Translations under genes and position numbers: made by a program
The notes under the pieces: generated by a model
What the model saw: the letters and a program-made list of their open reading frames with translations, nothing else
Database searches by the model: none
What the model was told of the DNA's origin: nothing
Assembly: GCA_050049715.1 (NCBI GenBank)
Contig: JASFVS010000001.1
Location: forward strand, 1 to 40,226
DNA length: 40,226 nucleotides
Source of the DNA: Phycisphaerales bacterium
GTDB taxonomy: Bacteria > Planctomycetota > Phycisphaerae > Sedimentisphaerales > Anaerobacaceae
Direction of reading: 5' to 3'
Shown: positions 1 to 38,265 of the stretch, piece by piece
How the letters are laid out: every line of letters begins with the position of its first letter
Numbering within the stretch: position 1 is the stretch's first letter

Positions 1-1449
1 GGACGATGGCGCTTGGTGCGTCAGGGATTGACCGAAAGCTTACTCATTGCTTTGGCCGGTGCAGCTGGCGGGTTGTTATTCGCTTCATGGGCAAAGCAAG
101 TTCTCTTCAATATGTTCTGGTCGTCGAATGAAGGAGTTGATTTAAGCCTGGATGTTACTGTGCTTGGTTTTACTTTAGTGATTTGCGTGGGATCAGTATT
201 GTTGTTCGGTTTGCTACCAGCCTGGCGCTGGAGTCGTATCAATCCCATGGTCTCGCTAAAGGAACGTTCCTCATGCGTATTGTCACGTATGCGATTGGGT
301 AAATGGATGGTTTCTTTGCAAATTGCCCTGGCCTTGCTGTTGTTAGTAGGGGCAGGACTTTTTGTACGAACATTAGTAAATCTATACAGAGTGAACACCG
401 GTTTCCAGACCAAGAATCTTTTAGTATTTAGCCTGGATGGTCGCAAGGCTGATATTAAAAACCAACAACTGGCAGATTTCTACGAACAGGTGCGTTCGGC
501 CATTGAAACACTGCCAAGTGTTCGGGGTGTGGCCCATTCCAATCTGCTATTGCTGACTGGCTGGATGAATAATAGTAAGGCGCAAATTCCCGGGCGACCC
601 GCAGAGGACAAAATGCCAATTCTGGGATTGTCTGTCAGCGACTCGTTCTTATCGACGATGGATATTTCGCTGTTGCTGGGTCGTGATTTTTCTATCACGG
701 ATAATGAAGCCGGGCGACCGGTTATTCTGGTCAACGAGACGCTGGCGCGTACAGCATTTCCGGAACAGAACCCTATCGGCCAAACTCTTACTATCAATCG
801 GCGAGAGTATAATATTGTAGGTGTCTTCGAGGATATAACTTACGTCAGATTAAAACAGGCTCCGGAACCGACTGTATTTTATTCCTACCAACAGCAATCC
901 GGATATCCGGGCAAGATTTTTTACGAAGTGCGGACTACATCAAATCCTATGGCTATGGTTCCCGCCATCCGCCAAATTATAACCGACATCAATCCCAATA
1001 TTCCGATGGCCGACATTAAGACTCAGGCTATCCAGCTCGATGAATCTATTGCACAGGAACGCTGCTTTACCGTAATCGCTTCAGGGTTGGCATTGCTGGC
1101 CATATTGCTCTCGTGTATTGGCCTTTTCGGGCTCATGGCATACCGGACCGCTCAACGCACCGGTGAAATGGGTATCCGCATGGCTTTAGGTGCAACCGCT
1201 TGGAATCTGGCCTGGCCTGTTCTCCGTAGTGCGTTGCTAATGGCAACCGCTGGCATCTCTATAGGACTACTGATGGTTTTTGCTGCTGTCAGATTAATTC
1301 GCAACTATCTATTCGGGATTGAACCATACGACTTCGGAACTATAGTCGCGGCTATGTTTGTATTGATAATAGTTTCAATTTTAGCCGCATGGATACCAGC
1401 CCGCCGGGTGGCAAGAATCGACCCGATGGAGGCGCTGAGGTATGAGTGA
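1..1449 (+). CDS. ADOP/MacB-type ABC permease (P1), C-terminal ~480 aa; 5' end outside the window
   Basis: Frame 1 is open from base 1 (GRWR precedes the track's start at 13). It aligns with residue ~310 onward of the full-length paralogs (GAGRWRxFRQxLTESLLLALLGG). It contains a second periplasmic domain, a C-terminal 4-TM FtsX bundle, and the family tail RIDPMEALRYE*. Confidence 0.9.
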   Translation, partial: GRWRLVRQGLTESLLIALAGAAGGLLFASWAKQVLFNMFWSSNEGVDLSLDVTVLGFTLVICVGSVLLFGLLPAWRWSRINPMVSLKERSSCVLSRMRLGKWMVSLQIALALLLLVGAGLFVRTLVNLYRVNTGFQTKNLLVFSLDGRKADIKNQQLADFYEQVRSAIETLPSVRGVAHSNLLLLTGWMNNSKAQIPGRPAEDKMPILGLSVSDSFLSTMDISLLLGRDFSITDNEAGRPVILVNETLARTAFPEQNPIGQTLTINRREYNIVGVFEDITYVRLKQAPEPTVFYSYQQQSGYPGKIFYEVRTTSNPMAMVPAIRQIITDINPNIPMADIKTQAIQLDESIAQERCFTVIASGLALLAILLSCIGLFGLMAYRTAQRTGEMGIRMALGATAWNLAWPVLRSALLMATAGISIGLLMVFAAVRLIRNYLFGIEPYDFGTIVAAMFVLIIVSILAAWIPARRVARIDPMEALRYE

Positions 1450-1466
1450 GATAGAATACAGAAGAC
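1423..1466. repeat. Junction repeat copy 1 (3' end of P1 plus post-stop motif)
   Basis: The sequence is CCGATGGAGGCGCTGAGGTATGAGTGAGATAGAATACAGAAGAC. Its first 29 nt are identical to the copy at 12689 and differ by 1 nt from the copy at 9490. Similarity continues past the TGA stop. Confidence 0.85.
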
Positions 1467-1487
1467 AGTGTAGGGAAGGAATTGTAG

Positions 1488-3902
1488 ATGAGTACTTTAT
1501 GGCATGATATTCGATACGGCTTTCGGGCGCTATTAAGAAATCCGGGATTGGCGATGGTAGTGATATTGACGCTGGCATTCAGCATTGGGATTAATATTGC
1601 AGTCTTTACCGTAGTTGATGGTATTTTACTACGTCCGTTGCCCTTTCCTGAATCGGATAAGCTGATATTTATCGGCTATTACCAGGATGGTATGCTGGAT
1701 ACACTCTCAGGGCCCGACTTCCTTGACTGGGAAAACCAGAATCACGTTTTCAAAAATTTATCCGCTTTCACTTTTTCTGACAGAAACCTGACAGGTATCG
1801 ATCGTCCGATGGCTTTGAAGACCTGGAACGTTACGACAAATTATTACCAAACTATGGGTATCGAACCAATTCTGGGCCGCGGTTTCCTACCCGAAGAATC
1901 TATCGAAGGCAATCATCAAGTTGTTATTTTAAACCATGATTTGTGGCAACAAAAATTCGGTGCCAATCCACAGGTAATCGGTAAACATATCACTTTGGAT
2001 GGGGAACCGTACACTGTGGTTGGAGTTGCTCCAGGAAAACAGGGAATAATAGGGCAGATGGCTCAAATCTTAGTCCCCCTAATCAAACAGGAATTAAATC
2101 AAAGTCGGGATTCGCACTCCTACCTGGCAGTGGGAAGGCTCAAATCCGGAATAACCCTGCAACAGGCCCAGGCGGAAATGGATACTATTGTCAGCCGACT
2201 GGAACAGAAGTATCCTAATTCTAATGCGAACTCTCGCGTTGAACTCATGCCTCTACAGAAGATATTGATAAGGGAAGCCGGAGTAATGCTTTGGATTTTA
2301 TTCTCTGCTGTGGGACTGTTTCTTTTAGTCGCAGGTGTGAATGTGGCCAGTATTCTGTTGGCACGCTCAGAAACACGAAGGCCTGAAATAGCTGTGCGCC
2401 GTGCATTGGGGGCCAGCCGGTTCCGTGTAATTAGGCAGATACTCATCGAAAGTCTGGTTTTGTCTGTGCTCGGTGGCGCTGCAGGGTTGCTAATGGGTTA
2501 TTGGGCTGTAACGTATCTGCAGCAAATGTTGCCCAACGAACTTTTCGGCGGTATCCCTCTTTTCGACCAGGTGCAGTTCCATCCTCGCGTACTTGGTTTT
2601 GCATGTATAATTTCGTTAGTAACAGGATTCCTCTTTGGCATTATTCCGGCCTGGCATGCGTCACGACCAACGTTGACAGAGGTTCTCAGGCAGGGGACTC
2701 AGACTGCTCTTGGTGGTTCACGCAGACACGGTTTGCTAAGTATCTTTGTGGGTACGGAAATAGCACTTGCTCTTGTTTTACTCGTTGGTGCCGGTTTACT
2801 CGCAAAAAGTTTTTATCGGTTTCAGCATGTTGAGCCTGGTTTTGACAGTAAACGGATTTTGGCTGTAGAATTGGAACTTCCGGGGCAGGATAAATATAGG
2901 ACACACTATCAACGTTTGGCGTTCTTCAGACAGGCCAAACGACGTATAGCATCCCTTTCAGATGTTATATCGGTTGATTCTATTAATCTTCGTCCATTGA
3001 GTACCTGGAAATCTAATCAGGGTTTCCGGATTGAAGGACGAGCCCCTTTGCCGACAGGGCGACATCAGGCGGCCGAGTACAGGCAGGTCAGTTGGAATTA
3101 CTTTTCCACGATGAAAATGAAATTGAGGTCGGGAAGATTTCTACAGGAAAAAGATGACAATACTAATCCGGTTATGGTGGTGAATGAGGCCTTTGTGTCT
3201 CGTTATTTCCCTGATGAAGAGCCTCTACATAAACACATACTCTTCCGCGGAAGAAATCTGGAGATTGTAGGTGTCGTCGGTAATGTCAAGTCACGCGGTA
3301 TGAGTTTGAACTTAGTAGAACATCCCCCAAAAATGTATGAACCAATAACCCAGGCCTGTAATAACTCTTTTACGATTATGGTCAGGACAATAGGTGATCC
3401 GATGGCATTAGTCGGTCCGGTTCAACAAAAGATCTGGGAGGTTGATGGAGATTTGCCTATTGCCAAGATTCACACTATGAATGAAGTATTATACGAATCC
3501 ATGGCCCTGCAGTATGTCGGGTCTTTATTAATGTGCGTGATAGCATTAGGCGCTCTGCTCCTTGCCGTAATTGGAATTTACGGTCTTTCAGCCTATTCCA
3601 CAAATCAACGTCACCATGAATATGGCATTCGTATGGCCATAGGGGCGCAGAGTAGGGATGTGCATTGGTTAGTGATGAAAAAAGGATTAAAGCTTACCGC
3701 TATAGGTTCGGTTGTCGGCTTAGTGGCTGCATTAGCCTTGGCAAGGGTTTTATCAAGTGTGCTTTATGATATGAGCGTTACGGATCCTGTTATTTTCGTA
3801 GGAATCACGTTGACGTTAATAGTTACAGCTCTTTTAGGCTGCCATATACCGGCCCGGAGAGCAGCGAAAGTTGACCCAATGGAAGCGTTAAGATACGAAT
3901 GA
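1488..3902 (+). CDS. ADOP/MacB-type ABC permease (P2), fused double FtsX with two periplasmic domains, 804 aa
   Basis: The N-terminus is MSTLWHDIRYGFRALLRNPGLAMVVILTLAFSIGINIAVF and the C-terminus is ARRAAKVDPMEALRYE*. An internal duplication is visible: IIPAWHASRPTLTEVLRQG mid-protein mirrors the C-terminal tail. Hydrophobic TM clusters flank two large soluble segments. Confidence 0.9.
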   Translation: MSTLWHDIRYGFRALLRNPGLAMVVILTLAFSIGINIAVFTVVDGILLRPLPFPESDKLIFIGYYQDGMLDTLSGPDFLDWENQNHVFKNLSAFTFSDRNLTGIDRPMALKTWNVTTNYYQTMGIEPILGRGFLPEESIEGNHQVVILNHDLWQQKFGANPQVIGKHITLDGEPYTVVGVAPGKQGIIGQMAQILVPLIKQELNQSRDSHSYLAVGRLKSGITLQQAQAEMDTIVSRLEQKYPNSNANSRVELMPLQKILIREAGVMLWILFSAVGLFLLVAGVNVASILLARSETRRPEIAVRRALGASRFRVIRQILIESLVLSVLGGAAGLLMGYWAVTYLQQMLPNELFGGIPLFDQVQFHPRVLGFACIISLVTGFLFGIIPAWHASRPTLTEVLRQGTQTALGGSRRHGLLSIFVGTEIALALVLLVGAGLLAKSFYRFQHVEPGFDSKRILAVELELPGQDKYRTHYQRLAFFRQAKRRIASLSDVISVDSINLRPLSTWKSNQGFRIEGRAPLPTGRHQAAEYRQVSWNYFSTMKMKLRSGRFLQEKDDNTNPVMVVNEAFVSRYFPDEEPLHKHILFRGRNLEIVGVVGNVKSRGMSLNLVEHPPKMYEPITQACNNSFTIMVRTIGDPMALVGPVQQKIWEVDGDLPIAKIHTMNEVLYESMALQYVGSLLMCVIALGALLLAVIGIYGLSAYSTNQRHHEYGIRMAIGAQSRDVHWLVMKKGLKLTAIGSVVGLVAALALARVLSSVLYDMSVTDPVIFVGITLTLIVTALLGCHIPARRAAKVDPMEALRYE

Positions 3903-3918
3903 TGAATAAAGGGAAGAA

Positions 3919-6345
3919 ATGAGTACTCTAATTAATGACATAAAATACGGTATCAGACAACTCTGGAAGAAGCCCGGTTTTACGGTTGTGGCGGTTTTGA
4001 TTCTGGGTTTGGGTATAGGCGCCAATACGGCTCTGTTTAGCTTAATCCAGGGGGTTTTGTTTAGTCCTTTGCCATTTGAAGACTCGGAAAACTTAGTGTT
4101 TGTGCAAAAGTCCTTTATAGGTCGTGGCCCGGGAGGGTCCTGTTCCGGTCCGGATTATCTGGACTGGGTCGAGCAGAATACGGTGTTTGAGGGATTAGCT
4201 TCTCTTGATATCGGGTATCGCTTGAATTTAACAGGCCAGGGAGAACCCGCGGCTTTGACAGGGGCAAGAGTCAGTACAAATTTCTTTGATGTGTTTGGCA
4301 CACGCGTCGCGCTGGGTCGTAAGTTTCGGAGTGACGAATCCGAGAGCGACAAGCGACACGTTGTAGTGCTGAGTGACCGGTTATGGCACGACCGTTTCGG
4401 TGCGGACCCTGATATTGTCGGTAAAAATATCAATCTCGATAGTGTCCCCTGCACCGTTATCGGCGTAGCGGCCCCAATGATGGGATTCATTGAGGAAATG
4501 ATTCAACTCTATGTCCCAATGCCAATCGATGAACTTCGCAGACACCGCGGCAGTCATTATCTGGATGTGATTGGCCGTTTGAAATCGGACGTATCTATCC
4601 AAGAAGCCCAGGCCCAAATGAATGTCGTATGCGCGCAGATTGAGAAACAACATCCCCGTACCAATAAGGACAAAAGGGTTTACTTGAGTTCTCTTCATAC
4701 CGAACTGATTGGGAGTATTCGGACAGCGTTTTTGGTATTGTATGGAGCTGTTGGATTTCTCTTATTGATCGCCTGTGTTAATGTATCGAATTTACTCTTA
4801 GCCAGAGCGGGAACACGTACGAAGGAAATCGCAGTTCGCAGCGCTCTGGGTGCCGGACGCTGGCGAATTTTTAGACAAATGCTGACAGAAAGCCTGCTTT
4901 TAGCTTTGCTCGGTGGCGCCTTCGGGTTGCTGCTTGGTTTTTGGGGATTGAGCGGCTTAAAGCTCATTGCTCCGGCGGTGTCACCCGATACCGGTGGTAG
5001 TATTCCCGGATTCGATGAGATAAGTCTTAATCCAATGGTCCTGGGATTTACTGTGCTGGTGTCTTTAGTTAGTGGTGTGTTGTTTGGTATGGTTCCGGCC
5101 TGGCACGGTTGTCGTTCTCGAATAATCGAAACGCTGAAACAGGGTGGGCGTTCCCTGTCGGAGGGGCGTTCGCGTCATCGTGCACTCAATATGCTGGTCG
5201 GTACGCAAGTGGCTTTAGCCCTGATTCTCCTGACCGGAGCCGGTTTACTGATTAAGAGCTTTTTTCGGTTACAGCACGTCCATCCCGGATTTGTGGCGGA
5301 TAGAGTTTTGGCCGTCACCCTGGAACGGCCGGATACCGAAAAGAACCGTAGTCTTAGTGAGCGAGTAGCTTTTTACGAACAGGTTGTTGACCGTATCCGT
5401 GCCTTGCCCGGCGTGGAGTGTGCCAGTGCCATCAGCAGGCATCCCATTACGTCCAGTACTAATGATAACGACTTTGGTATCAAGGGTAAAACCTTCCCGG
5501 TGGGTCAATCACCTAATGCGGAATACCGTCAAATTACACCCGATTATTTCAAATGTATGAAAATACCCCTGATCAAGGGTCGAGTGTTTACCCGCGAGGA
5601 TCGCGGCAACGAATCCCACGTTATTATAGTGAATCAGGAATTAGTACGCAGGTATTTCCCTGGCACAGACCCTATCGGACAGTTCCTTCAGATAAACGGC
5701 CGAGACAAAGAGGTAATCGGAGTCGTCGGTAACGTCAAACAGACCAGCCTGAATAGTAATCGCGTACGAACCTTTATGTACGAACCTATTACCCAGAGTT
5801 GCCGACGAGGTATGAGCCTAATGGTTCGTACAGCCGGCAATCCTAACGCTTTGATTAAAGCAATACATCAACAGATCTGGGATATCGATTCCAGTCAGCC
5901 TATTCTGAAAGCGGCTACTATGGAAAATATTATTGCTAATTCCATGTCTGTAGAGCGATTTTGCATGGTCCTGCTGGCCGTTATGGCCGGAGTAGCTTTG
6001 CTGATGGCCGTAGTGGGTCTTTATAGTGTCATGGCCTTTGCCGTTCACGAACGCATTAATGAAATCGGTATCCGCATGGCTTTGGGTGCACAAGCTGGTG
6101 ACATTCTAAAGCTTGTTACGAAACATGGGCTGATTCTAACGCTCATTGGTCTGGCAATCGGTCTGGCAGGGGCCTTCGCCCTCGTGCACTGCCTGTCCGG
6201 CATGCTGTATCAGACCAGTGCTACGGATCCAGTGACATTTGTAATTGTTCCATTAATACTCTTTGTTGTCGCTATGCTGGCCTGTTACCTGCCTGCACGA
6301 CGGGCGGCGAAAATCGATCCAATAAAAACATTAAGATACGAATAA
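3919..6345 (+). CDS. ADOP/MacB-type ABC permease (P3), 808 aa
   Basis: It begins MSTLINDIKYGIRQLWKKPGFTVVAVLILGLGIGANTALFS and ends ARRAAKIDPIKTLRYE*. The architecture matches P2. It starts 16 nt after the P2 stop. Confidence 0.9.
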   Translation: MSTLINDIKYGIRQLWKKPGFTVVAVLILGLGIGANTALFSLIQGVLFSPLPFEDSENLVFVQKSFIGRGPGGSCSGPDYLDWVEQNTVFEGLASLDIGYRLNLTGQGEPAALTGARVSTNFFDVFGTRVALGRKFRSDESESDKRHVVVLSDRLWHDRFGADPDIVGKNINLDSVPCTVIGVAAPMMGFIEEMIQLYVPMPIDELRRHRGSHYLDVIGRLKSDVSIQEAQAQMNVVCAQIEKQHPRTNKDKRVYLSSLHTELIGSIRTAFLVLYGAVGFLLLIACVNVSNLLLARAGTRTKEIAVRSALGAGRWRIFRQMLTESLLLALLGGAFGLLLGFWGLSGLKLIAPAVSPDTGGSIPGFDEISLNPMVLGFTVLVSLVSGVLFGMVPAWHGCRSRIIETLKQGGRSLSEGRSRHRALNMLVGTQVALALILLTGAGLLIKSFFRLQHVHPGFVADRVLAVTLERPDTEKNRSLSERVAFYEQVVDRIRALPGVECASAISRHPITSSTNDNDFGIKGKTFPVGQSPNAEYRQITPDYFKCMKIPLIKGRVFTREDRGNESHVIIVNQELVRRYFPGTDPIGQFLQINGRDKEVIGVVGNVKQTSLNSNRVRTFMYEPITQSCRRGMSLMVRTAGNPNALIKAIHQQIWDIDSSQPILKAATMENIIANSMSVERFCMVLLAVMAGVALLMAVVGLYSVMAFAVHERINEIGIRMALGAQAGDILKLVTKHGLILTLIGLAIGLAGAFALVHCLSGMLYQTSATDPVTFVIVPLILFVVAMLACYLPARRAAKIDPIKTLRYE

Positions 6346-6357
6346 TAGGAAGAAAAT

Positions 6358-7056
6358 ATGATTAAGTTGAAAAACATCGAAAAGTGTTACAAAACCAAAG
6401 CAGGATTTACCTATGTATTGCGGCAAATCACTCTGGATTTCGAAGATGGAGAGTTTGTCACTATCATGGGGCCGTCCGCCGCAGGCAAAACTACATTATT
6501 AAACATCCTCGGTATGCTTGACCACGACTGGGAGGGTGAATACTATCTCGAAGACAATGCGGTGCATGAGCTTAAACCCAAACAGCGTATGGCTTTGAAC
6601 AGGCAGTATGTGGGATTTGTGTTCCAGAACTTTAACCTTCTGGACAGCCTTACGGTTTATGAGAATCTGGATGCGCCCTTGTCCTATCGCAACGTTAAGA
6701 GTTCGGAACGTGCAAGTATTGTCTGCGATACTCTGGACCGTTTTGGAATCGTGGGCAAAAAGGATCTCTATCCAAGTCAGCTTTCCGGCGGTCAGCAACA
6801 ACTCGTAGCCATTGCCCGCGCTGTAGTGGCCAGCCCCAAGCTGATTCTTGCAGACGAACCAACAGGTAATCTGCATTCGTCACAAGGTGAGGAAATTATG
6901 GACCTATTTAAAAGATTGAATCGGGAAGGAACTACTATCATTCAAGTAACCCACTCGGAGAAATATGCCTCATACGGCAAACGTATTATTAAGCTCTCGG
7001 ATGGCTGGATGGATGGGGAAATCACCCCTGAGCAGTTATTAGGAAGGGTAAGTTAG
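6358..7056 (+). CDS. ABC transporter ATP-binding protein (MacB/LolD-type NBD), 232 aa; the only NBD in the array
   Basis: Motifs present: Walker A GPSAAGKTT, Q-loop FVFQNFNLL, signature LSGGQQQ, Walker B LILADEPT, H-loop VTHS. It lies 12 nt after the P3 stop and 3 nt before the P4 start. Confidence 0.93.
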   Translation: MIKLKNIEKCYKTKAGFTYVLRQITLDFEDGEFVTIMGPSAAGKTTLLNILGMLDHDWEGEYYLEDNAVHELKPKQRMALNRQYVGFVFQNFNLLDSLTVYENLDAPLSYRNVKSSERASIVCDTLDRFGIVGKKDLYPSQLSGGQQQLVAIARAVVASPKLILADEPTGNLHSSQGEEIMDLFKRLNREGTTIIQVTHSEKYASYGKRIIKLSDGWMDGEITPEQLLGRVS

Positions 7057-7059
7057 AGC

Positions 7060-9516
7060 ATGGTAAATTTATGGCACGACATCAAGTGCGGTATTCGACA
7101 ATTGCGCAAGTCTCCCGGCTTTACTATCGTAGCCGTACTGACCCTGGCACTCGGTATCGGTGCTAATATTACGATGTTCAGTTTCTTCAATGCCTATCTG
7201 CTTCGTCCCTTGCCGTACCAGGATACCGATCGTATAGTAACAGTGCGAGAGGAGGACAGAAAGACAGGTGACAGACCGCCGAACATTTCGTATGCCGACT
7301 ATCTGGACTGGGCCGAACATAACCAATGCTTTGAAGCATTGGCCTGTTATGGCATTGATGATTATACCCTTACATATCAAGATTCAAAGGAACGCCTCGG
7401 TTGTATAAAGGCCACAGGCAACCTGCTATCTATGCTTGATGTCAAACCTGTTGCTGGCCGGCTCTTTAGGCCAGAGGACGACCAGCCGCAGGCGGAGAGG
7501 ACGGTGATTCTAAGCCATGCACTTTGGCAACGGCGCTTTGGAGGCAGTACTGATGTGCTTGGTGAGTCTATTTTACTCAATGATCTTCCTTATACGGTCA
7601 TCGGTGTGTTACCTGCTTCGTTTGCCTTTCCCTCCTTCCGTCGAGATCCTGTTGACCTATGGACCCCCATGGCACCAATGGCGGTGATAGCTGGAAATGA
7701 GTGGTTTGCTGAGCGGGGTAACTATGGAGGAACCACAGGTATAGGGAAGCTCAAAGCGGGTGTATCCTTACAGCAGGCCCGGGCCGAGATGGATCGGGTA
7801 GCCCGACAATTAGAACAGGCCAATCCAAGATTCAATACGAATAAGGGTATATTCGTAGGATCATTCCACCACCGTCTCGTAGCCAACGTGAAGCCTACGA
7901 TGTTACTATTGATGGGCGCAGTGGCCTGCGTGCTCTTGATTGTATGTGTGAACATCGCCAATTTGGTTTTAATCCGTTCGGCCGTACGCAACCAGGAATT
8001 CGCCGTGCGCAGCGCCCTGGGTGCAGGTCGATGGCGTCTCTTTCGTCAATTGTTCTGCGAGAGCATGTTGTTAGCTGTACTTGGGGGCATAGGAGGACTC
8101 ATACTTGCCTTCTGGAGTTTGGATATCCTTGGCACTATACTGCCGGATAACCTGTCCCACCCTGACGGCAAACGTCTCCTGATGGATGGTCCTATGGTTC
8201 TGTTCCTACTGGGAGCCACAATGGGTACAGCTATGATTTTCGGTTTATTGCCGGCACTGCGGTCATCCCGGGTGGTATTGAGCCGTTCTTATTGGGACAC
8301 GGCACGAAGTGTTACTGCAGGACCGGGCAGCCATCGGTTGCGTAATGCCTTGGTTATTTCCGAGATGGCGCTGGCCTTGATTTTGTTAGTCGGGGCTGGC
8401 TTGCTGCTTCGCAGCTTTGTATACTATCTACGGAGCGACCCCGGATTCGATTCTCAAAAGACCCTGGTTATGAATCTTGATTTGCCTAAGAGGATCGGTC
8501 AATACCCTCCGCAGAAACAGGACTTTTATCGAGAACTCGTTCAACAGATTCAACCTATTGCTGGTGTTGAGTATGTAGGTGCGGCCTCGAATATTCTGGG
8601 GCATTGGGGCCAGACTTACTATGTCGAAGGCAGCCCTATTCTAGGACCCGGTGAAGCCAGTGGGGCCAATATTGGTAATGTCACCCCAGCATTCTTCCAG
8701 TCCATGGGGATTCCGCTTTTGGAGGGACGTTTTTTCACAGAGCACGATCAGCGTGATGCGGCCCTGGTGGCTATCATCGATGAAAAACTGGCGCGTAGAT
8801 GGTGGCCTAATGAAAGCCCTATTGGCAAACGTATACAACGCAACGGGCGGCCTGATCCGAACGATTCCTGGTATGAAGTGGTTGGCGTGGTGGGGCACAT
8901 TAAATATGACGGGGTAGATAGGGAGGCGGGGGAATACCTGTATTTTAGTGCCTATCAGTCCGTCCAGACCTTCTGGGACAGCATGACACTCGTCGTGCGC
9001 AGCGATGGTGATCCCATGCGTCTGGCAGGTGGGATTGGACAAGCAATTGCCGCTGTTGACCAAGAGGTCACAACCGGCAACATTCGCACGTTGCAGACGA
9101 TTGTGGGGGAACAATCCTTCATGCGGCGTTTAATTACAACCGTATTGGGTTTATTCGCAATTACGGCTTTGGTACTTTCCGCCTTGGGCATCTACGGTGT
9201 GATGGCTTATTCCATGTCTCAACGTACTCATGAAATTGGCATCCGCGTGGCCCTGGGAGCCAGCGAAGGTAATATTATTCGTATGACTCTGCGCCAGGGT
9301 ATTAAGCTGGTGCTGGTGGGCGTCAGCCTTGGATTGATAGGAGCCTTAGTTTTGACTCGATTACTTACCGGTTTTCTATTTGGTGTATCCAGCAGAGACC
9401 CGATTACATTATTCACTGTGATTGGTGTATTGGTAATAATAGCTCTCCTGGCCTGTTATGTTCCAGCTCGACGAGCGGCAAAGACTAATCCGATGGAAGC
9501 GCTGAGGTATGAGTGA
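7060..9516 (+). CDS. ADOP/MacB-type ABC permease (P4), 818 aa
   Basis: It begins MVNLWHDIKCGIRQLRKSPGFTIVAVLTLALGIGANITMFS and ends ARRAAKTNPMEALRYE*. It has the same double-FtsX layout. Confidence 0.9.
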   Translation: MVNLWHDIKCGIRQLRKSPGFTIVAVLTLALGIGANITMFSFFNAYLLRPLPYQDTDRIVTVREEDRKTGDRPPNISYADYLDWAEHNQCFEALACYGIDDYTLTYQDSKERLGCIKATGNLLSMLDVKPVAGRLFRPEDDQPQAERTVILSHALWQRRFGGSTDVLGESILLNDLPYTVIGVLPASFAFPSFRRDPVDLWTPMAPMAVIAGNEWFAERGNYGGTTGIGKLKAGVSLQQARAEMDRVARQLEQANPRFNTNKGIFVGSFHHRLVANVKPTMLLLMGAVACVLLIVCVNIANLVLIRSAVRNQEFAVRSALGAGRWRLFRQLFCESMLLAVLGGIGGLILAFWSLDILGTILPDNLSHPDGKRLLMDGPMVLFLLGATMGTAMIFGLLPALRSSRVVLSRSYWDTARSVTAGPGSHRLRNALVISEMALALILLVGAGLLLRSFVYYLRSDPGFDSQKTLVMNLDLPKRIGQYPPQKQDFYRELVQQIQPIAGVEYVGAASNILGHWGQTYYVEGSPILGPGEASGANIGNVTPAFFQSMGIPLLEGRFFTEHDQRDAALVAIIDEKLARRWWPNESPIGKRIQRNGRPDPNDSWYEVVGVVGHIKYDGVDREAGEYLYFSAYQSVQTFWDSMTLVVRSDGDPMRLAGGIGQAIAAVDQEVTTGNIRTLQTIVGEQSFMRRLITTVLGLFAITALVLSALGIYGVMAYSMSQRTHEIGIRVALGASEGNIIRMTLRQGIKLVLVGVSLGLIGALVLTRLLTGFLFGVSSRDPITLFTVIGVLVIIALLACYVPARRAAKTNPMEALRYE

Positions 9517-9540
9517 GACAGAAAACAGAATACAGAAGAC
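9490..9540. repeat. Junction repeat copy 2 (3' end of P4 plus post-stop motif, with an internal ACAGAA duplication)
   Basis: The sequence is CCGATGGAAGCGCTGAGGTATGAGTGAGACAGAAAACAGAATACAGAAGAC. Confidence 0.85.
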
Positions 9541-9620
9541 GAGTGAATCATTCAGTTTTCTTATAAATATTGTCATTGAACCGTTGAAAAGTAAAGCGTT
9601 CACACGATAAGGAGAATTCT

Positions 9621-10190
9621 ATGGATCGTAGAGAGCTCTTAAAACAAACCTGTGGCATGGGTCTATGTGCATGTGCAGGAACCTCCATGTTTGCTTCTGG
9701 ATGTAGTGCAACACAGTCCTCCAATTCCGAGGCAACCGAGGGCGAACCCACCTGGAGACTCCAATGGTGGCTGAGTCATACCCAGAAGCAGTGGGCCAAG
9801 CTCTGGAAGCTGCTGGAATCTCACTTGGATGAAAAGACTCGCGTGGCCATCCTGGAACAGTTGGGAAGGAACTGTGCCGCGAGTTTGGGGTGGGCCAAAC
9901 GATATAAAGGCAATTTTGAAGGTTTCTTCCAGTTCATGAATCAGAAGGCTGGCGAGCAGTTCAACTATGACAAGGACCACAGTGTCATTACCATTACGAC
10001 CCGTGAGCGGGCTTGCGATTGCCGTATGATTAACAATAAGGCCACGCCACCTATTGTTTGCGCTTGCTCGGTAGGCTGGCAGAAGTATACGTATGAGACC
10101 ATCCTTGATAAGAAGGTCGAGGCTGAGGTCAAGGAGTCGGTGTTACGTGGGTCGAAGCGATGCGTATTTGAGGTCCGTGTGGTTTCGTAG
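9621..10190 (+). CDS. Small exported Cys-rich protein of unknown function, 189 aa, with a twin-arginine signal and a possible lipobox
   Basis: The N-terminus MDRRELLKQTCGMGLCACAGTSMFASGC has an RR-x-LLK Tat motif, a hydrophobic core and ASGC at Cys28. The mature part carries C85, a C132-x-C134 ... C147-x-C149 cluster, and C181. A strong SD (AAGGAG) lies 7 nt upstream of the ATG. Confidence 0.7.
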   Translation: MDRRELLKQTCGMGLCACAGTSMFASGCSATQSSNSEATEGEPTWRLQWWLSHTQKQWAKLWKLLESHLDEKTRVAILEQLGRNCAASLGWAKRYKGNFEGFFQFMNQKAGEQFNYDKDHSVITITTRERACDCRMINNKATPPIVCACSVGWQKYTYETILDKKVEAEVKESVLRGSKRCVFEVRVVS

Positions 10191-10228
10191 CCTCCCGTTC
10201 GGAGATTGACAATGGATAAAGGGAAGAA

Positions 10229-12715
10229 ATGAATAGTTTAATCAATAATATTAAATATGCTCTGCGACAATTACGAAAGAAGCCCGGTTTTACTGTTATC
10301 ATAGTTTTAACGCTCGCCCTCGGCATCGGCGCAAACACTGCAATTTTCAATATTGTCAATACTACTTTTCTGCATGACCTGCCTTATGTTGAGTCTGACA
10401 GGCTTGTTTACCTTTCCGAAAGGAATGCACAAGGCAATACATTCCCGATATCGTATCCGAACTTTCTCGACTGGCAGCAACAGGATGTCTTTAGCGGGCT
10501 CGCGATATTTCACGGCGCAGAAGGTAAGCTGAATACCGAGCAAGGTATGGAGATAATGTCGGTGCTGAATGTCTCCTCAGATTTCTTTAATGTGCTATGT
10601 GTGCAACCGGCTCAGGGGCGCGGCATGCAGCCGGAGGATGATATCCCAGGTTCTGAACGGGTGGCTTGGATTACGAACGATGCCTGGCAGCGATTTTTCA
10701 GTGGTAATCCCGATATCGTGGGCCGCTCTTTCGAGTTTGACGGGCGGAATATCACTATTGTCGGTATTCTTCCTGCGAGTTTCCGATTTCACCAGCGGGC
10801 AGACCTCATAACGGCTATCGCACCGTTTGCCAAGGAATTCTTCCTCGACATGCGGGAGAGCCGCAGTAATGAATATGCAGTCGCTCGTCTTAAGCCTGGA
10901 ATTAGCATAGAGGCCGCAAAGGCGCAGATGGACGCGATCGCGATTCGTCTGGCCGAAGAACATCCCGTGGCCAACAAGGGCATTGGCATATCGACTGTTC
11001 CGCTACGTGAGCAACTTGCAGGTAGCGCGCGTGCGCAGCTTTTTCTGCTGCTTGGTGCGGTCGGCCTTGTACTGCTTATCGCATGTGCCAATGTAGCAAA
11101 CATGCTACTGGCACGCTCTTTCGCTCGCGAACGAGAGATGGCAATACGCACTTCACTCGGCGCGTCACGAATGCATCTGTTGCGGCAGTTACTCGTAGAA
11201 AGTCTCGTGCTCGCAGCAGCTGGTGGTGCTGCTGGTGCTATTGTAGGCTTGTGGGGTTATGGATTTGCCAGCCGTATGGTGCCTTTTCAGGTTCAGCAAG
11301 TAATCGATGGGGGAGGCTTTGATCTACGGACACTTCTTTTCATTGTCGGTATCACTATGGTTACCGGTGTAGTTTTTGGATTGGCTCCGGCCTGGCAACT
11401 TTCGCACGTCCTACCGGTCGAATCGCTTAAGCAGACTACGCGCGACAAACGCAAAATTTTCTGTCGCATCGGATTGAATGACCTGCTCGTTGTCGGGCAG
11501 GTGTCGCTGGCGCTGGTGCTGCTTATCGGGGCCGGCCTGATGATTCGCAGTCTGAACCGCCTGCTGAATGTTGAGACGGGATATGAACCAACCCGCGTAC
11601 TGACCCTTGAGGTGACGTCACCACCGATAGAACAATTCCAGCGCGATCCCGGTATTTTCACACGTCATTATGAGAAGGTGCTCGAGCCCGTCCAGAACAT
11701 GGTTGAGGTTGAGGCTGCGGCCGTTGCTTCGGGTATGCCTTTCACTTTCAGCACGAATAACATGACGTTCTATCGTAGGGATTTGCCCGTACCCGCGGCA
11801 GGCGAGTTTCCTATGGCCAGCAGTCATACAGTAAGTCCGGATTACTTTAGAGCTATGGGCATTCCCTTACTACACGGTCGTGTCTTTGATGGGACAGAAC
11901 CGGCTTACGTTATTCCGCCGGGAATGGAATTGACACCGCAGAACCTCGCCGCCATTTTTAAGGATGTCACCTTCTCCGCTGTTATAAGTAAGAAGATGGC
12001 CGATACTTTCTGGCCCGGGGAAGATCCAATCGGCAAACAATTTCGTCTCGGTTTTCCAGACCTCGGTCTTCCTTGGGTAGATGTTATTGGAGTAGTAGGT
12101 AATACCATACAGACAGGACTCGACCGCGGGGAAGCCACCGAGTTTTATCTGTCACTGCGTCAATGGCCGGTACCCGTTAACATGCATCTGTTGGTCCGCA
12201 CGCAACTCGAACCCAATGCTATTGTCAATTCTGTGCGAACCGCTGTCTCATCGGTAATGCCTGACGAACCTGTCCGTGATGTCCGGGTACTTGCTGAGCG
12301 AATCGACAACTCGACCGTCGGGCGCCGTTTCAACCGGAACCTTTTCGCTTGCTTTGCGACAACGGCACTTGTGCTCGCATTGGTTGGCCTTTACGGCGTA
12401 CTTGCCTTCAACATTAGTCGCCGCACTCGCGAGATTGGTATCCGCATGGCACTCGGTGCCAATCGTCTCGATATTATTTGCAGCGTTGTCGGAAGGGGGC
12501 TCGTTCTTGTTGTGCCCGGTTTGGTTATTGGTCTTGTATGCGCATGGGCAGTTGGTCGTGTACTGCAAAGCCAGCTTTTCGAAATCAAGAGCAGTGATCC
12601 GCTTACCTATGCAATCGGTGCATTGCTGATGATTTTCACTGCGGTAGTTGCCTGCTTGATACCAGCCTGCCGCGCATCTCGAATAGATCCGATGGAGGCG
12701 CTGAGGTATGAGTGA
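10229..12715 (+). CDS. ADOP/MacB-type ABC permease (P5), 828 aa
   Basis: It begins MNSLINNIKYALRQLRKKPGFTVIIVLTLALGIGANTAIFN and ends ACRASRIDPMEALRYE*. It has the double-FtsX layout. Confidence 0.9.
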   Translation: MNSLINNIKYALRQLRKKPGFTVIIVLTLALGIGANTAIFNIVNTTFLHDLPYVESDRLVYLSERNAQGNTFPISYPNFLDWQQQDVFSGLAIFHGAEGKLNTEQGMEIMSVLNVSSDFFNVLCVQPAQGRGMQPEDDIPGSERVAWITNDAWQRFFSGNPDIVGRSFEFDGRNITIVGILPASFRFHQRADLITAIAPFAKEFFLDMRESRSNEYAVARLKPGISIEAAKAQMDAIAIRLAEEHPVANKGIGISTVPLREQLAGSARAQLFLLLGAVGLVLLIACANVANMLLARSFAREREMAIRTSLGASRMHLLRQLLVESLVLAAAGGAAGAIVGLWGYGFASRMVPFQVQQVIDGGGFDLRTLLFIVGITMVTGVVFGLAPAWQLSHVLPVESLKQTTRDKRKIFCRIGLNDLLVVGQVSLALVLLIGAGLMIRSLNRLLNVETGYEPTRVLTLEVTSPPIEQFQRDPGIFTRHYEKVLEPVQNMVEVEAAAVASGMPFTFSTNNMTFYRRDLPVPAAGEFPMASSHTVSPDYFRAMGIPLLHGRVFDGTEPAYVIPPGMELTPQNLAAIFKDVTFSAVISKKMADTFWPGEDPIGKQFRLGFPDLGLPWVDVIGVVGNTIQTGLDRGEATEFYLSLRQWPVPVNMHLLVRTQLEPNAIVNSVRTAVSSVMPDEPVRDVRVLAERIDNSTVGRRFNRNLFACFATTALVLALVGLYGVLAFNISRRTREIGIRMALGANRLDIICSVVGRGLVLVVPGLVIGLVCAWAVGRVLQSQLFEIKSSDPLTYAIGALLMIFTAVVACLIPACRASRIDPMEALRYE

Positions 12716-12732
12716 GATAAAAAATAGAAGAC
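12689..12732. repeat. Junction repeat copy 3 (3' end of P5 plus post-stop motif)
   Basis: The sequence is CCGATGGAGGCGCTGAGGTATGAGTGAGATAAAAAATAGAAGAC. Confidence 0.85.
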
Positions 12733-12760
12733 GGGAGACAATATACAAAAGGAATTATAA

Positions 12761-15177
12761 ATGAGCACTTTAATCAACGACATCAAATACGGTGTCAGAC
12801 AACTCTGGAAGAGTCCCGGTTTTACCATCGTAGCTGTACTGACGCTCGGACTTGGCATTGGGGCTACCGCCACACTTTTTAGTGTTTTCAAGGCATGGGT
12901 TTTCAATCCGTTTCCATATCCTAGTTCAGACCGAATTGTTCATGTTTGGTCAAACGTTTCCAAAAATGGCGAGGGGCCGCTCTCTGCGCCCGACTTCCTT
13001 GATATTAGAGAGAGAAATAAATCATTTTCTGATATTGCGGCTTATACTCTCGAGCGGGTTGACCTTGGAGGTGACAAACCGGAATCTATACATGCTGTCC
13101 GTAGTACAGCCGGGTTGCTACGTGTATTTGGGGTGCAGCCTGTACTGGGGCGGTTTTTCGACAAGGCCGATGAGGATAATTCTGATTCGACACATGTGGC
13201 TATTATCAGTTATGGATTGTGGAAAAGGCTTTTCGCCTGCGACCGGGAGGTTATTGGGAAGACTGTGCGCTTGAATAGACAGGAGACTACGATTGTAGGT
13301 GTTATGCCTGCGAATTTTGAATTCTACACATCTCGACATGGAGGCCGTAGCTACGAAATCTGGCGGCCTCGTGCGTTGAGGTCACAAAATAGAGGACCTC
13401 AATGGTTATTATGTATGGCACGGTTAAAGGAGGGAGTGAGCTTCGAAGCAGCAGAAGCTGAAATCAAGATGATTGGTTTACAACTCAAAGCAGAGTATCC
13501 TGACACAAACCAATCCAAACCGTTTTGTCTGCGTTCACATCACGAAGAGATAACCCGTAACGCTAAGTCCAGCATGTGGTTTCTTTTCGCAACTGTAGTG
13601 CTGTTACTTCTTATTGCATGTGCAAACGTTGCCAGCATGCTGCTGGCCAGAGGTACTAAAAGACAGGCTGAATTCTCTTTGCGTTTTGCTATTGGGGCAC
13701 AACGTTCGGATATGCTAAGACTCTTATTTACTGAAAGTTTCCTGTTGGCGCTTTTGGGCAGCGTTTCAGGTATTTTGCTGGCTGCATTTGGTTTAGCTTT
13801 TGTTAAGCATTTCATTCCGCAGGCAGCGGTTCTTGAATCACAAAGGCTTGCTCTGCAAATAGATGGAATAGTCCTGATGTTCTCGATTGGTCTGGCTGTA
13901 CTAACAGCTTTGTTGTTTGGTTTGCTGCCTGCTTTTACGGCGGCGCAAAGCAACGTTACTGAGATGATTAAACAAGGCGGCCGATCACAAGCCAGCTCAC
14001 GAATCAGATATCGATTCCTTCGATACCTGGTGGTCGGGCAAATAGCTTTAGTTCTTGCTATTGCGAATTGTTCGATACTGCTTTCAAAAAGCTATCTTAA
14101 TGTTATGAATATAAATAAAAAACTTATTTCAGAGCATGTTCTGACATCAAATATCATTCTGCGCGGTGAGCACTATAATAATGCCGAATCCAGGGAACAA
14201 TTCTGGAACCAGTTAATCGAACATACCGGTGCCTTGTCCGGAGTCAGCCATGCCGCGATTGTAACAAATATGCCTCTTGAGGGTAGCTTCAGTTGCCTAA
14301 TCATCCAAAACGAAAAGTCCGTTGATCCTTCACAGTATCGTTTGCAGCCGCTCGCGGAAATAAGCTATATCTCACCTGACTATTTCATGAGTATGGGAAT
14401 TCCATTTATACAGGGGCGGTCTCCACGGAAGATTGACAGCGAAGATGAGTTTATTGGTGTTGCCGTAAATCGTGCTCTCGTTAAGGCATTGTGGCCCGGG
14501 CAGGACCCTATTGGCAAATTGTTTAAGCCTCCTTTTCCGGATCCGTTTTTCAAAGCAAAAGTTATAGGTGTGGTCGAAGATGTCAGGCAATGGGGCCCAG
14601 AAATACCAGCACTGCCACAGATATATTTCCCGTTTCAGAGTGGTCGTATGAACAGAGGTACATTGGTGATGCGTACGAATGCAAAAGCAAATGCTTTTGT
14701 TCCATTGCTCAGGCAGGAGCTGGCTAATATCGATCCTGATTTGCTTCTGGTTGATATAAGTACCATGAAGCAGGTCGTAGAAAGCTCAACCAGCGGCCGA
14801 CGGTTTTATACGTTTGCCACTAATGCTTTCATGAGTATTGCTTTAGCTATTACAGTAGTCGGTATATACGGCACGCTTTCCTATAACCTCACGCAGCGCA
14901 AACGTGAGATAGGTGTGCGTATCGCTCTGGGCGCATTACGCTGTGATATTATTCGCTTTGTTGTTCGGCAGGCATTGCCGGACTGGCCATTGGACTGACA
15001 CTCACAGCGGTACTGTCCTTTGTCTTGCGTTCCCTTGTATATGATATCAGCCCTTTAAATCCGCTGTCATTATTGCTTGGATTAGGCGTCATAGGCGGAG
15101 TTTCGTGCCTGGTGTGTCTTATTCCCGCTATTGGCGCAACACGAATCGACCCGATGGAAGCATTAAGATATGAATGA
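12761..15177 (+). pseudogene. ADOP/MacB-type ABC permease (P6) interrupted by a frameshift near 14970 (true pseudogene or assembly error)
   Basis: The ORF 12761-14998 (MSTLINDIKYGVRQLWKSPGFTIVAVL...) ends abnormally in ...RFVVRQALPDWPLD*. The missing last TM helices and family tail are intact in the -1 frame at 14974-15177: IAGLAIGLTLTAVLSFVLRSLVYDISPLNPLSLLLGLGVIGGVSCLVCLIPAIGATRIDPMEALRYE*. The junction CGGCAGGCATTGCC looks like CAG-GGC that has lost one G. Confidence 0.75.
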
Positions 15178-16838
15178 GAGTTTTTATGAGAAACAATGAA
15201 ATAAAAGAACAGAAGAGTATGTGGTTGGTACGCCATCAAACAGTTTTAGTATCAATTATCCTTATTATCATAGCGGGTTGTTCGACTTCGCACATTGAAG
15301 AGGAGGCAAACAACAAAGCCATGATAATGGGGCTCGATAAAATTGATACCGTGCAGCTTTCGGAGCATTCGGTATCATCTCCTGTAACTGTTGAACAAGC
15401 GACCGAAGAAATCACTCAACAGGTTACGGACTCTAATGAATCTCAACAAACAATAACTTTAAGCCTGGAACAAGTTCGAGAGGCCGCTTTAGCAAATAAT
15501 CTTGACTTAAAAGTCGAGCTTGTAGATCCTTCCATTGTCCAGACCGCACTGGATGAAGAGCGAGCCAAGTTCGAGGCGGCTTTCTTCGGCTCAGCAGAAA
15601 CTCAGCGAAGCAAAACTGCTACTGCTGTTACCAAAACCCAGGATTATGAATTAAGCATTGAAAAGCCATTGCCGACCGGCGGATTGATTGAAGTCGGTCT
15701 GCCTTTTGGTGATGACATGTCCTCAGGCGGTGTTGCGGATGCGGCCGCCAGCGTCTCTGTTATACAATCCTTGCTCCGCGGGGCCGGCACGCGTATAAAT
15801 ACGCAGTCTATTCGTATTGCCGGTCACGAAAGAAATATCATCAATGCCAGAACCAAACTTGTAGCTATTTATTTACTCGCCAGTGCTGATATTGCGTATT
15901 GGCGTCTTTACGCGGCCCGTAAAGAACTCGATGTTCGCAGAGAGCAATACAAGCTGGCACAGGACCAGCTTAATCACGCGAAGAAGAAAGTTGCTGCGGG
16001 TTCGGCTGCAAAAATCGAAATCGTACGAGCGGAAGCAGGTTTATCCGGTCGTCTCGAAGCTGTGATTAATGCTGAAACTACGGTGCTGAATCGAACTCGC
16101 GATATTCAACGCATCATGAATCGTGACGACATGCCTTTAGAGGCCGTTGTGGATATTGTGACACAGACTGAGCCAAATCCGCTTGGACTGGGCCTTGACG
16201 AAAGGCAACTTACCGAGCAGGCCTTGTCTAACCGAATGGAAATGGTTGAGCTGGAACTGCAATTAACCATTGATGAACTCAATGTTGAGCTGGCACGCAA
16301 CAATACCCTGCCCGATTTGGCGTTGAATTACACCTATGCAGCCCAGGCGCAGGAAAGCACTATAGGTGGTGCTTTAGGGGACCTGACGGATAATCCGTTT
16401 GATAGCCATTCAGTCGGCCTGTCTGTTGCTGTCCCCTTGGGTAACCGTGTTGCTAAAGCTCGCCTCCAACGGGCCCAGCTTTTAAAAATGCAGGATCAGG
16501 TAAGACGCAACAGACTCCAACAGCTTATTCGACAGGAAGTTTATAATGCAGTCAGTGAGTTACGTGGGAACTGGCGTCGTATTCTTGCTGCGGAACAGGG
16601 TGTGACCGCCGCATACAGGGATTACAAGGTCGAACAATCTCAATTTCAACTTGGTGTCCGTACAAGTACGGACGTTCTATACTCTGCTACCCGTCTAGCG
16701 GACGCACAGCTTGGCAGAATACGTGCCTTCACGGATTATGAAATAGCCCAGATATACCTGGCACAGGCTACCGGCACTCTTTTAGGAAAAGGACAAATCC
16801 AGATAGCCTCTGTGGATATCGATGACAGTCTCCCTTAA
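15174..16838 (+). CDS. TolC/NodT-type outer-membrane efflux lipoprotein (OMF), up to 554 aa
   Basis: There is a lipoprotein signal ...MWLVRHQTVLVSIILIIIAGC with lipobox IAGC. OEP-type repeats are present (LSLEQVREAALANNLDLKVELVDPSIVQTALDEERAKFEAAFFG; LPDLALNYTYA). The ATG at 15174 overlaps the TGA of the P6 C-terminal fragment (ATGA). Alternative starts exist at 15186 and 15219. Confidence 0.85.
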   Translation: MRVFMRNNEIKEQKSMWLVRHQTVLVSIILIIIAGCSTSHIEEEANNKAMIMGLDKIDTVQLSEHSVSSPVTVEQATEEITQQVTDSNESQQTITLSLEQVREAALANNLDLKVELVDPSIVQTALDEERAKFEAAFFGSAETQRSKTATAVTKTQDYELSIEKPLPTGGLIEVGLPFGDDMSSGGVADAAASVSVIQSLLRGAGTRINTQSIRIAGHERNIINARTKLVAIYLLASADIAYWRLYAARKELDVRREQYKLAQDQLNHAKKKVAAGSAAKIEIVRAEAGLSGRLEAVINAETTVLNRTRDIQRIMNRDDMPLEAVVDIVTQTEPNPLGLGLDERQLTEQALSNRMEMVELELQLTIDELNVELARNNTLPDLALNYTYAAQAQESTIGGALGDLTDNPFDSHSVGLSVAVPLGNRVAKARLQRAQLLKMQDQVRRNRLQQLIRQEVYNAVSELRGNWRRILAAEQGVTAAYRDYKVEQSQFQLGVRTSTDVLYSATRLADAQLGRIRAFTDYEIAQIYLAQATGTLLGKGQIQIASVDIDDSLP

Positions 16839-23995: not shown

Positions 23996-24099
23996 TTTTT
24001 AGTCTTTTAAAGAAAAAATTAAATTTTTTCAAAATTTTTCACTTTTTTTCTCTTTTTGTATTTGCACTCTCAGGTCTATTTCGATAAATTACGTAATTT
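23996..24099 (+). promoter_or_regulatory. AT-rich phased T-tract region with a candidate promoter and a 14-bp palindrome upstream of tRNA-Thr/tuf
   Basis: T-runs start at 23996, 24005, 24024, 24035, 24043 and 24053, roughly one helical turn apart. A candidate promoter is TTGCAC (24062-24067), a 17-nt spacer, then TAAATT (24085-24090). A perfect palindrome AAATTACGTAATTT spans 24086-24099. The promoter hexamers are weak matches. Confidence 0.3.
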
Positions 24100-24255
24100 A
24101 CATAAATAAATTGTTTATAAGGCAATGTATTCCTGCGCTATCAGTATATAAAAGATGGGCAGGAATAAAGGGGGATTGCCGTATTTTTTGGCTTTAAGGT
24201 CAGGTGTGGTGTTGTATTTTGTTCGGTCCACCACTATGTCGGTGAGCTGGATATT

Positions 24256-24327
<72 letters not shown>

Positions 24328-24467
24328 AAATGCAAGCGGGTCAAGCCGGGCTGGTTTTGTAACTCCGGTTGTGAATTGATTATAAAAGGTTTTTAGAGAA
24401 TTTTGTAAGAGAGTTAAATATTGGGATAAGTCAATATTAATCCTTTACATTGGAGGTTTATATTAAG

Positions 24468-25682: not shown

Positions 25683-25823
25683 GCATCTCTGGGTGACTTC
25701 TAAAGGAAACTACGAGTACCCAAAATTAGAGTGCTCAGACCGGCTAAGTGTATCCGGGCAGGTATATATGGAACAATTAGATGTTTCTTAGGTGAATGAA
25801 CCTGTCTGGCGGGGATGAACTTT

Positions 25824-25994: not shown

Positions 25995-26078
25995 TTGATT
26001 ATTGACAGATACAGATTTCGGCGTTTGGGGCAATTGCAAATATTCTATAAGGAAGGCATATTCAATAGTCAATTAAAT

Positions 26079-26151: not shown

Positions 26152-26225
26152 TTTTGGATTGTTAGGTTTACGTAGAAATGCAGGATTGGCGGTCCTGTTT
26201 TAGTTTGGTGAATATGAGGTAAGTT

Positions 26226-38242: not shown

Positions 38243-38265
38243 GCTGGCTAAATTGAGGAAAAATA

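Follow-up and report, generated by a model that had tools for sequence, protein, structure and literature searches.

Tandem ADOP permease genes in a Phycisphaerales bacterium: the probable downstream part of a longer, MacAB-TolC-like export operon

How could a row of large permease genes operate with one ATPase gene, one exit duct and no adaptor in view? This question is raised by positions 1-16838 of a 40,226-nt stretch of Phycisphaerales DNA (contig JASFVS010000001.1, forward strand; the whole stretch is hereafter called the window), where six permeases of the ADOP family (acidobacterial duplicated orphan permease) are encoded in tandem with an ABC-type nucleotide-binding domain (NBD) and a TolC-like outer-membrane factor (OMF). 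From a comparison with related loci we propose, with a probability of about 0.6, that this array is the downstream part of a longer Phycisphaerae operon for tripartite type VII ABC envelope export, which would resemble MacAB-TolC and be equipped with many alternative permeases. The conserved set around the ADOPs, as predicted from the related loci, is a sigma54-type two-component system, a putative sigma54 promoter, a HlyD-family adaptor, two ATPases (NBD-A and NBD-B) and the OMF.

ADOPs form large families in Acidobacteria, Bacteroidota and Phycisphaerae, and we know of none with an established substrate, partner ATPase or structure. The word "orphan" in the family name referred, in the original description, to the lack of an adjacent ABC ATPase gene. 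The ADOPs of the window are not orphans in this sense, as the NBD-A gene is embedded among them; the term comes from the name of the family and not from its hidden Markov model (HMM).

The permease array of the window

The curated cutoff of the ADOP profile (TIGR03434) is 622.3 bits and is passed by W2 (1488-3902; 804 aa; 874 bits), W3 (3919-6345; 808 aa; 955 bits), W4 (7060-9516; 818 aa; 931 bits), W5 (10229-12715; 828 aa; 849 bits) and W6 (12761-15177; 709 bits), all on the + strand. The first gene, W1 (1-1449, + strand), is an open frame from base 1 that exits the window edge; its C-terminal 482 aa match only positions 317-803 of the profile, with 493 bits, a score lying below the cutoff because the gene is cut. 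Two MacB_PCD and two FtsX stretches were found with Pfam in every complete ADOP of the window, W2 included. As the HMM E-values range from 1e-147 (the edge-cut copy) to 1e-287, chance is of no concern for the gene identities. A preliminary description of the window had counted six double-FtsX paralogs of ~800 aa; five of them, W6 included, pass the profile cutoff. W1 is cut by the edge, and W6 carries a frameshifting deletion of 13 nt.

The NBD-A gene (6358-7056, + strand; 232 aa) encodes an ABC ATPase of the MacB/FtsE/LolD type (PF00005, 103 bits). It lies 12 nt downstream of W3 and 3 nt upstream of W4, and its Walker A, Q-loop, signature, Walker B and H-loop motifs are intact as read by eye. 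The OMF gene (15174-16838, + strand) encodes a lipoprotein of the TolC/OEP family, with two PF02321 matches (114 bits) and a lipobox (IIAG/C) at Cys36; its score against TIGR01844 is 81 bits, under the cutoff of 225. Both genes had been correctly identified and placed in the preliminary description. The genes of the array are co-directional and closely packed, with 3-45 nt between neighbours, 104 nt before a small open reading frame (ORF) and one 4-nt overlap; the OMF start codon overlaps the restored W6 stop (ATGA). The 104-nt gap had been taken to separate two permeases; it precedes a distinct 189-aa gene (9621-10190, + strand), and the fifth permease starts at 10229. No HlyD-type gene was found within the window, either by domain scans or by phmmer with the adaptor of the related locus L011, nor was any sigma54 motif found in its array by motif search, and the promoter and terminator consensus scans gave counts at shuffle level. 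W1 being incomplete, the window does not show the whole array.

W3 was modelled with AlphaFold2 from 80 homologues (pLDDT 89.4; pTM 0.85). The model contains 8 transmembrane (TM) helices and two periplasmic alpha/beta domains; together with the TIGR03434, MacB_PCD and FtsX matches, it bears out the earlier assignment of these ORFs to fused double-FtsX permeases. The first half runs through an N-terminal elbow helix, TM1, a periplasmic domain, TM2, a coupling helix (residues 301-309), TM3 and TM4; the second half through TM5, the second periplasmic domain, TM6, another coupling helix (residues 713-721), TM7 and TM8. This is the type VII layout, in which TM1 and TM2 flank a periplasmic domain and the connection of TM2 to TM3 contains a coupling helix. 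Among the full-length Foldseek matches of the model, E. coli YbbP (9GE6_A, E=6e-20) ranks first, ahead of MacB, Spr0695, LolC/E and BceB, all with a probability of 1.00; the nearest solved protein by sequence is MacB (E=1e-20, PDB). YbbP and BceB possess two linking TM helices (Greene et al. review, PMC5985334). From the 8-TM model of W3 we therefore regard the ADOPs as direct fusions of two type VII units, without linking helices of the YbbP type.

Related loci and the genes expected upstream of base 1

The comparison set consisted of the closest relative, L002, together with L021 from the same metagenome-assembled genome (MAG), and six further Phycisphaerae lineages. L002 was the one useful relative returned by a genome scan, the other match being an unrelated Microthrix. 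In L002 (contig JASFMF010000045 of a Phycisphaerales MAG), the region of W1 is 89% identical in amino acids and 85% in nucleotides, and the order of genes is a partial ADOP, an ADOP, NBD-B (235 aa), the W1 orthologue (5369-7846) and another ADOP; the NCBI record already names the protein "ADOP family duplicated permease". The stop of this NBD-B gene overlaps the start of the W1 orthologue, and its product is only 45% identical to the NBD-A of the window. L021 (JASFMF010000042) starts inside a HlyD adaptor gene (PF13437, 50 bits; HlyD_D23, 31 bits), which is followed by 3 ADOPs.

In the other lineages the same parts recur in varying order. L011-L013 read sigma54 response regulator, histidine kinase, HlyD adaptor, NBD-A (79% identical to that of the window), ADOP, NBD-B, ADOP, OMF. 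L020 reads response regulator, histidine kinase, adaptor, 4 ADOPs and NBD-B, and continues beyond. L019, on a 994-kb contig that it shares with L016, comprises a response regulator, a histidine kinase and an adaptor at 124.9 kb, then 4 ADOPs and a gene for an extracytoplasmic-function (ECF) sigma factor; after an unseen 6.7 kb, L016 proceeds with 9 ADOPs and one NBD-B to 165.3 kb on one strand, which amounts to at least 13 ADOPs, one NBD-B and the ECF sigma gene within 40 kb. L022/L023 consist of 4 ADOPs, NBD-B, 2 ADOPs, NBD-A and 2 or more ADOPs, and L017 of 6 ADOPs, NBD-B, NBD-A, ADOP and OMF. NBD genes are embedded in the array in 6 of the 7 related lineages, and both NBD types occur in all four lineages whose locus includes NBD-A, among them every OMF-terminated locus. 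A HlyD adaptor heads the array in L011-L013, L019, L020 and L021. The number of ADOPs per locus ranges among the relatives from 2 to at least 13, and permease genes far outnumber the ATPase, adaptor and duct genes in the window and in every related locus.

A putative sigma54 promoter of canonical form, TGGCAC-N5-TTGCT (TGGCAT in L020), precedes the adaptor ATG by 15-25 nt in three lineages (L011 5212-5227, L013 198-213, L019 9972-9987, L020 9973-9988) and adjoins the pair formed by an NtrC-type response regulator and a histidine kinase. In the best model, the operon would be controlled by sigma54 and two-component induction.

The shared parts are well conserved between loci. Identities (window, L011, L017 and L022) reach 79-86% for NBD-A, and those between loci 84-90% for NBD-B, 77-84% for the adaptor and 55-67% for the OMF (67% between the window and L011), whereas NBD-A and NBD-B are 43-46% identical to each other, the NBD-A of the window sharing 43-45% with the NBD-B copies. 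Database searches showed NBD-B and the adaptor to be ~70-97% conserved across more than 100 Phycisphaerae and Sedimentisphaerales clusters, the adaptor being at least 68% identical across its 120 best database matches. The ADOPs of the window are 27-45% identical to each other, and with the most similar ADOPs of other genomes they share mostly 30-51%. Their periplasmic domains are the least conserved parts (28-31%), in keeping with the divergent specificities suggested in the preliminary description, and the N-terminal helix stands at 62%. Conservation peaks in the second coupling helix; the coupling helices in general, which carry invariant R/E/G/A residues, and the C-terminal DPMEALRYE are also highly conserved. 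ADOP subclades recur across genomes at 60-69% identity, and this recurrence indicates ancient paralogy rather than recent amplification. A fixed pairing of each NBD with one permease was considered and is not supported: in the ADOP tree, the permease following NBD-A falls in different clades in different genomes, and we therefore see no dedicated NBD-permease pairs.

From this comparison, base 1 is most likely preceded by a second ATPase gene, more ADOPs, the adaptor and the regulators, and the 6:1:1 ratio of permease, ATPase and duct genes, the single ATPase and the absence of an adaptor most likely are artefacts of the window edge. The preliminary description fared accordingly in several respects. 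Its single ATPase is not borne out by L002, where NBD-B and two ADOPs precede the W1 orthologue, nor by L022/L023, where NBD-B, ADOPs, NBD-A and ADOPs follow one another. The embedded ATPase, which it called unusual, is the rule in this clade. The missing adaptor holds for the window, but not for the loci cited above that an adaptor heads. It had also allowed that ATPase and adaptor genes just upstream would make the locus an ordinary set of independent MacAB-like pumps; the relatives do lead us to expect such genes there, yet the locus would still not be such a set.

Further searches brought few additional neighbours. Phmmer with the L011 adaptor against the ORFs of the window and L001-L018 revealed no overlooked adaptor in the window, L002, L014 or L016-L018. 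A metagenome scan that took the most upstream ADOP of L002 as query yielded nothing but relatives of ~30% identity, of no use for synteny. NBD-A has exact matches in a 16-kb JGI contig starting inside W3 and in a 2-kb Logan contig, and exact-protein look-up of W2 and W3 found no record.

Each ADOP is a fused pseudo-dimer, in which 8 TM helices are combined with two periplasmic domains and a pair of coupling helices. In the mechanism that we propose, two NBD subunits would bind it through the conserved coupling helices. The divergent periplasmic domains would capture the substrate class proper to each ADOP, from the periplasm or from the outer leaflet of the inner membrane, and mechanotransmission would then push the substrate into an adaptor/OMF duct that the permeases would share.

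Known systems and alternative readings

MacAB-TolC, as known from E. coli, A. baumannii and A. actinomycetemcomitans, has in common with the window locus the 4-TM FtsX bundle with a periplasmic domain of the Porter/Sabre type, the MacB/LolD-type NBD and the OEP-family duct; relatives of the locus encode a HlyD-family adaptor. MacAB-TolC differs in that its NBD is fused to a homodimeric permease, whereas the window locus fuses two permease units in one 8-TM chain and encodes the NBD separately (232 aa). Window-type loci further differ by many permease genes per adaptor and OMF gene, by two NBD paralogs and, as their sequences suggest, by sigma54 and two-component control. The ADOPs of Acidobacteria belong to the same HMM family, against which W2-W6 score above the cutoff; unlike them, the Phycisphaerae ADOPs are not "orphan", NBD genes being embedded in their arrays.

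Three other type VII systems resemble the locus in part. In YbbAP-TesA (9GE6; PMC12646458), too, one permease chain joins two type VII units, carries two periplasmic domains and is served by a separate NBD, but the system works with the thioesterase TesA and without adaptor or OMF. YbbP has 10 TM helices, on account of the two extra linking ones (PMC5985334), against 8 in the W3 model. Membership of the window ADOPs in this family was rejected (NF041854, 17-25 bits against a cutoff of 999; 13-14% identity), and domain scans found no thioesterase gene in the window. LolCDE combines two non-identical 4-TM units (LolC and LolE) with a pair of identical NBDs and so corresponds to an ADOP pseudo-dimer in unfused form; it differs by its separate LolC and LolE chains, its lipoprotein substrate and its partner LolA, and membership was again rejected (lolCE, TIGR02212, at most 46 bits against 362; LolD, TIGR02211, 173 against 308). 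In DarBCD, DarB is a double-FtsX permease of ~780 aa with a separate NBD, DarD, which is the best NCBIfam match of NBD-A. The scores are too low for membership here as well (DarB, NF038008, 20-36 bits against 700; DarD, NF038007, 261 against 375), and the window locus has no precursor-peptide or radical-SAM genes.

ADOP arrays accompanied by ATPases are already known: a 42-kb cluster of Psychroflexus torquis contains ten ADOP paralogs with ATP-binding transporter proteins and is highly expressed, its function having been left open (PMC3914696). The literature that we searched describes neither the conserved frame that adaptor, NBD-A, NBD-B and OMF form in the Phycisphaerae arrays nor their sigma54 control and conserved junction spacers, and within it their architecture appears to be new. 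Apart from the Psychroflexus study, it yielded a species description of a Dyadobacter and general reviews on type VII systems.

Several points weigh against a tripartite operon extending upstream of base 1. The content expected there is deduced from relatives whose arrays differ in content, and the gene that follows the W1 orthologue in L002 is not W2. The array of L017 is headed by a beta-lactamase-family gene, without adaptor, and not every array is tripartite, as L014 (3 ADOPs and NBD-B) lacks both adaptor and OMF. As to the idea of many permeases sharing few parts, already present in the preliminary description, the comparative data fit and strengthen it; the parts would be shared among the permeases, and the case for all ADOPs using one adaptor and one duct consists entirely of gene counts.

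The window taken at face value, with no adaptor and a single NBD gene, would describe a self-contained 6:1:1 locus in which all six permeases use a single NBD dimer and a single OMF and reach the duct directly with their periplasmic domains, and the adaptor-free head of the L017 array would agree with it. We regard this as improbable, given that W1 is cut by the window edge, that the W1 orthologue of L002 is preceded by NBD-B and further ADOPs and that the MAG of L002 includes an adaptor-headed ADOP contig (L021); the constant company of NBD-A and NBD-B, in all four lineages bearing NBD-A, and the strong conservation of the adaptor across its 120 best matches also speak against it. Less credible still is a largely redundant or decaying duplication in which one or two permeases do the work. 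The frameshift of W6 and the fragmented ADOPs of L018 (two) and L015 (one) could be so read; on the other side, paralogs as ancient as these (27-45% identity) retain full-length ORFs and invariant coupling-helix motifs, the same subclades recur across genomes, and W6 is intact in the sister JGI contig.

The main rival, which we hold to be unlikely, is that the adaptor/OMF duct is fed by a subset of the ADOPs, the rest being TolC-independent type VII machines akin to LolCDE, YbbAP-TesA or FtsEX that borrow the same ATPases. It is likewise doubtful, though conceivable, that such ADOPs pull lipids, lipoproteins or hydrophobic compounds out of the inner membrane, or that they pass force on to partners in the periplasm. 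L014, with its 3 ADOPs and NBD-B and no OMF or adaptor in the 10 kb shown on each side, and L018, with 9 ADOP genes or fragments in 22 kb and no NBD, adaptor or OMF in view, count in favour of this rival. So does YbbP, the closest full-length match by structure, which acts as a duct-free extractor (PMC12646458), as does the predicted periplasmic protein with a ligand-binding fold inserted at 9621-10190. Nevertheless, the ADOPs have 8 TM helices against the 10 of YbbP (PMC5985334), and in several lineages the adaptor heads the operon and the OMF closes it, both being encoded on the ADOP strand. We retain the long tripartite operon as the preferred reading.

Junction spacers, insertions and cassette exchange

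The ADOP-ADOP junctions contain a conserved sequence of 38-46 nt, GACAGAAAACAGAATACAGAAGACAGTATACAGAAGGAATTATAA, made up of ACAGAA-type heptad repeats followed by GGAATTATAA-ATG. In the window it occupies 1450-1487 (+ strand), with ACAGAA-type repeats and a GGAA ribosome-binding site, and 12716-12760 (+ strand; 45 nt), while the first 24 nt of a third copy (9517-9540, + strand) are interrupted by the insertion of the small gene. In the relatives it occurs at 2093-2137 and 7847-7884 of L002, 3655-3699 and 6133-6177 of L021, 5002-5046 and 7477-7514 of L017, and 13649-13693 and 16181-16225 of L020. A scan with the spacer motif gave 4 matches, 3 of them in ADOP junctions, against 0.28 expected. 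The spacer recurs across genomes and between unrelated paralog pairs, the gene bodies of which are merely ~30-40% identical; it may act in translation or as an RNA element, or mark a site of recombination. A distinct spacer of ~91 nt is conserved upstream of NBD-B (L002 4574-4664; L020 21150-21240) and contains a small hairpin, GGTCTGAAAGGCC / GGCCCAATGGGCC, with compensatory changes.

Two single ADOP genes of the window are common to other genomes at 85-87% nucleotide identity, and their neighbours are unrelated paralogs. The shared stretches are 12650-15179, corresponding to L017 4936-7478, and 6-1549, corresponding to L002 6406-7946; in the latter, identity amounts to 80-94% and falls to ~50% just past the junction at ~1500. 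Such breaks of identity at a junction suggest that cassettes may be gained, lost or exchanged one at a time. On this basis we tentatively put forward, as possible rather than probable, that the arrays are modular "specificity libraries", in which conserved parts are combined with ADOP cassettes exchanged singly by junction recombination, and that NBD-A and NBD-B supply the drive that the "orphan" ADOPs had long seemed to lack. The exchange junction would be formed by the C-terminal DPMEALRYE codons, the ~45-nt ACAGAA-repeat spacer and the N-terminal MSTL..DIKYG codons.

Foreign genes were observed in or beside the related arrays: the ECF sigma gene stands between ADOPs in L019 (18948-19496), a DNA_alkylation-family gene between ADOPs in L018 (17618-18382), and an rve-family transposase gene directly after the OMF in L011 (15241-16320) and L013 (10227-11294).

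W6 is 90% identical in amino acids and 87% in nucleotides to its orthologue in L017 (5047-7476). Relative to the latter, 13 nt (AGGCTTATTATTG), adjoined by an AGGC direct repeat, are missing after ~14973. The deletion shifts the last 68 codons (…GLAIGL…RIDPMEALRYE) into another frame ending at 15177, and the in-frame product of 745 aa ends at 14998. The JGI contig with the identical NBD-A has an intact 809-aa gene at the position of W6, and the lesion is therefore either strain-specific or an assembly error. The frameshift would reflect a strain polymorphism, a pseudogene or an error of assembly.

The small gene at 9621-10190, inserted in an ADOP junction, encodes a Cys-rich, presumably exported protein with a TAT-like (twin-arginine translocation) N-terminus (MDRRELLK) and the invariant cysteines C132, C134, C147, C149 and C181 (CxC…CxC…C). 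Its family comprises 428 cluster representatives at E<=1e-3; no Pfam match above cutoff was obtained, and DUF6144 matched weakly. The AlphaFold2 model (pLDDT 88.8) has a V4R/Bet3-like fold, for which Foldseek returned Bet3/TRAPPC3 and the phenol-sensor domains of MopR/PoxR/DmpR, at a TM-score of ~0.5. The product may be a periplasmic ligand-binding partner, if it is not a mere passenger; a passenger or accessory role is probable.

Beyond the array, the window encodes MoeA, a glyoxalase-II-like hydrolase, a kinase, a DUF6807 protein, two GFO/IDH/MocA oxidoreductases, EF-Tu, NusG, L1 and S7, and an Rfam scan of the window detected two tRNAs only, at 24256 and 26079. The tRNAs, EF-Tu, NusG, L1 and S7 form a ribosomal and transcription gene cluster at 24000-40226, where rpoB and rpoC are the probable identities of two long ORFs, 29643-33479 and 33531-37832. 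GC skew is 0.16-0.27 in this cluster, against the markedly lower 0.03-0.15 of the ADOP array.

The Phycisphaerae operons name concrete partners for ADOPs, namely two types of ATPase, one adaptor, one duct and a sigma54 two-component switch. They thereby make testable what powers these permeases and whether one tripartite pump can accept many alternative inner-membrane permeases. If the arrays were indeed specificity libraries, related genomes would carry different permease repertoires on the same machine. Should the permeases really share these parts, the result would be a combinatorial efflux design of an unusual kind, by which the specificity of envelope export would be widened without duplicating the whole pump.

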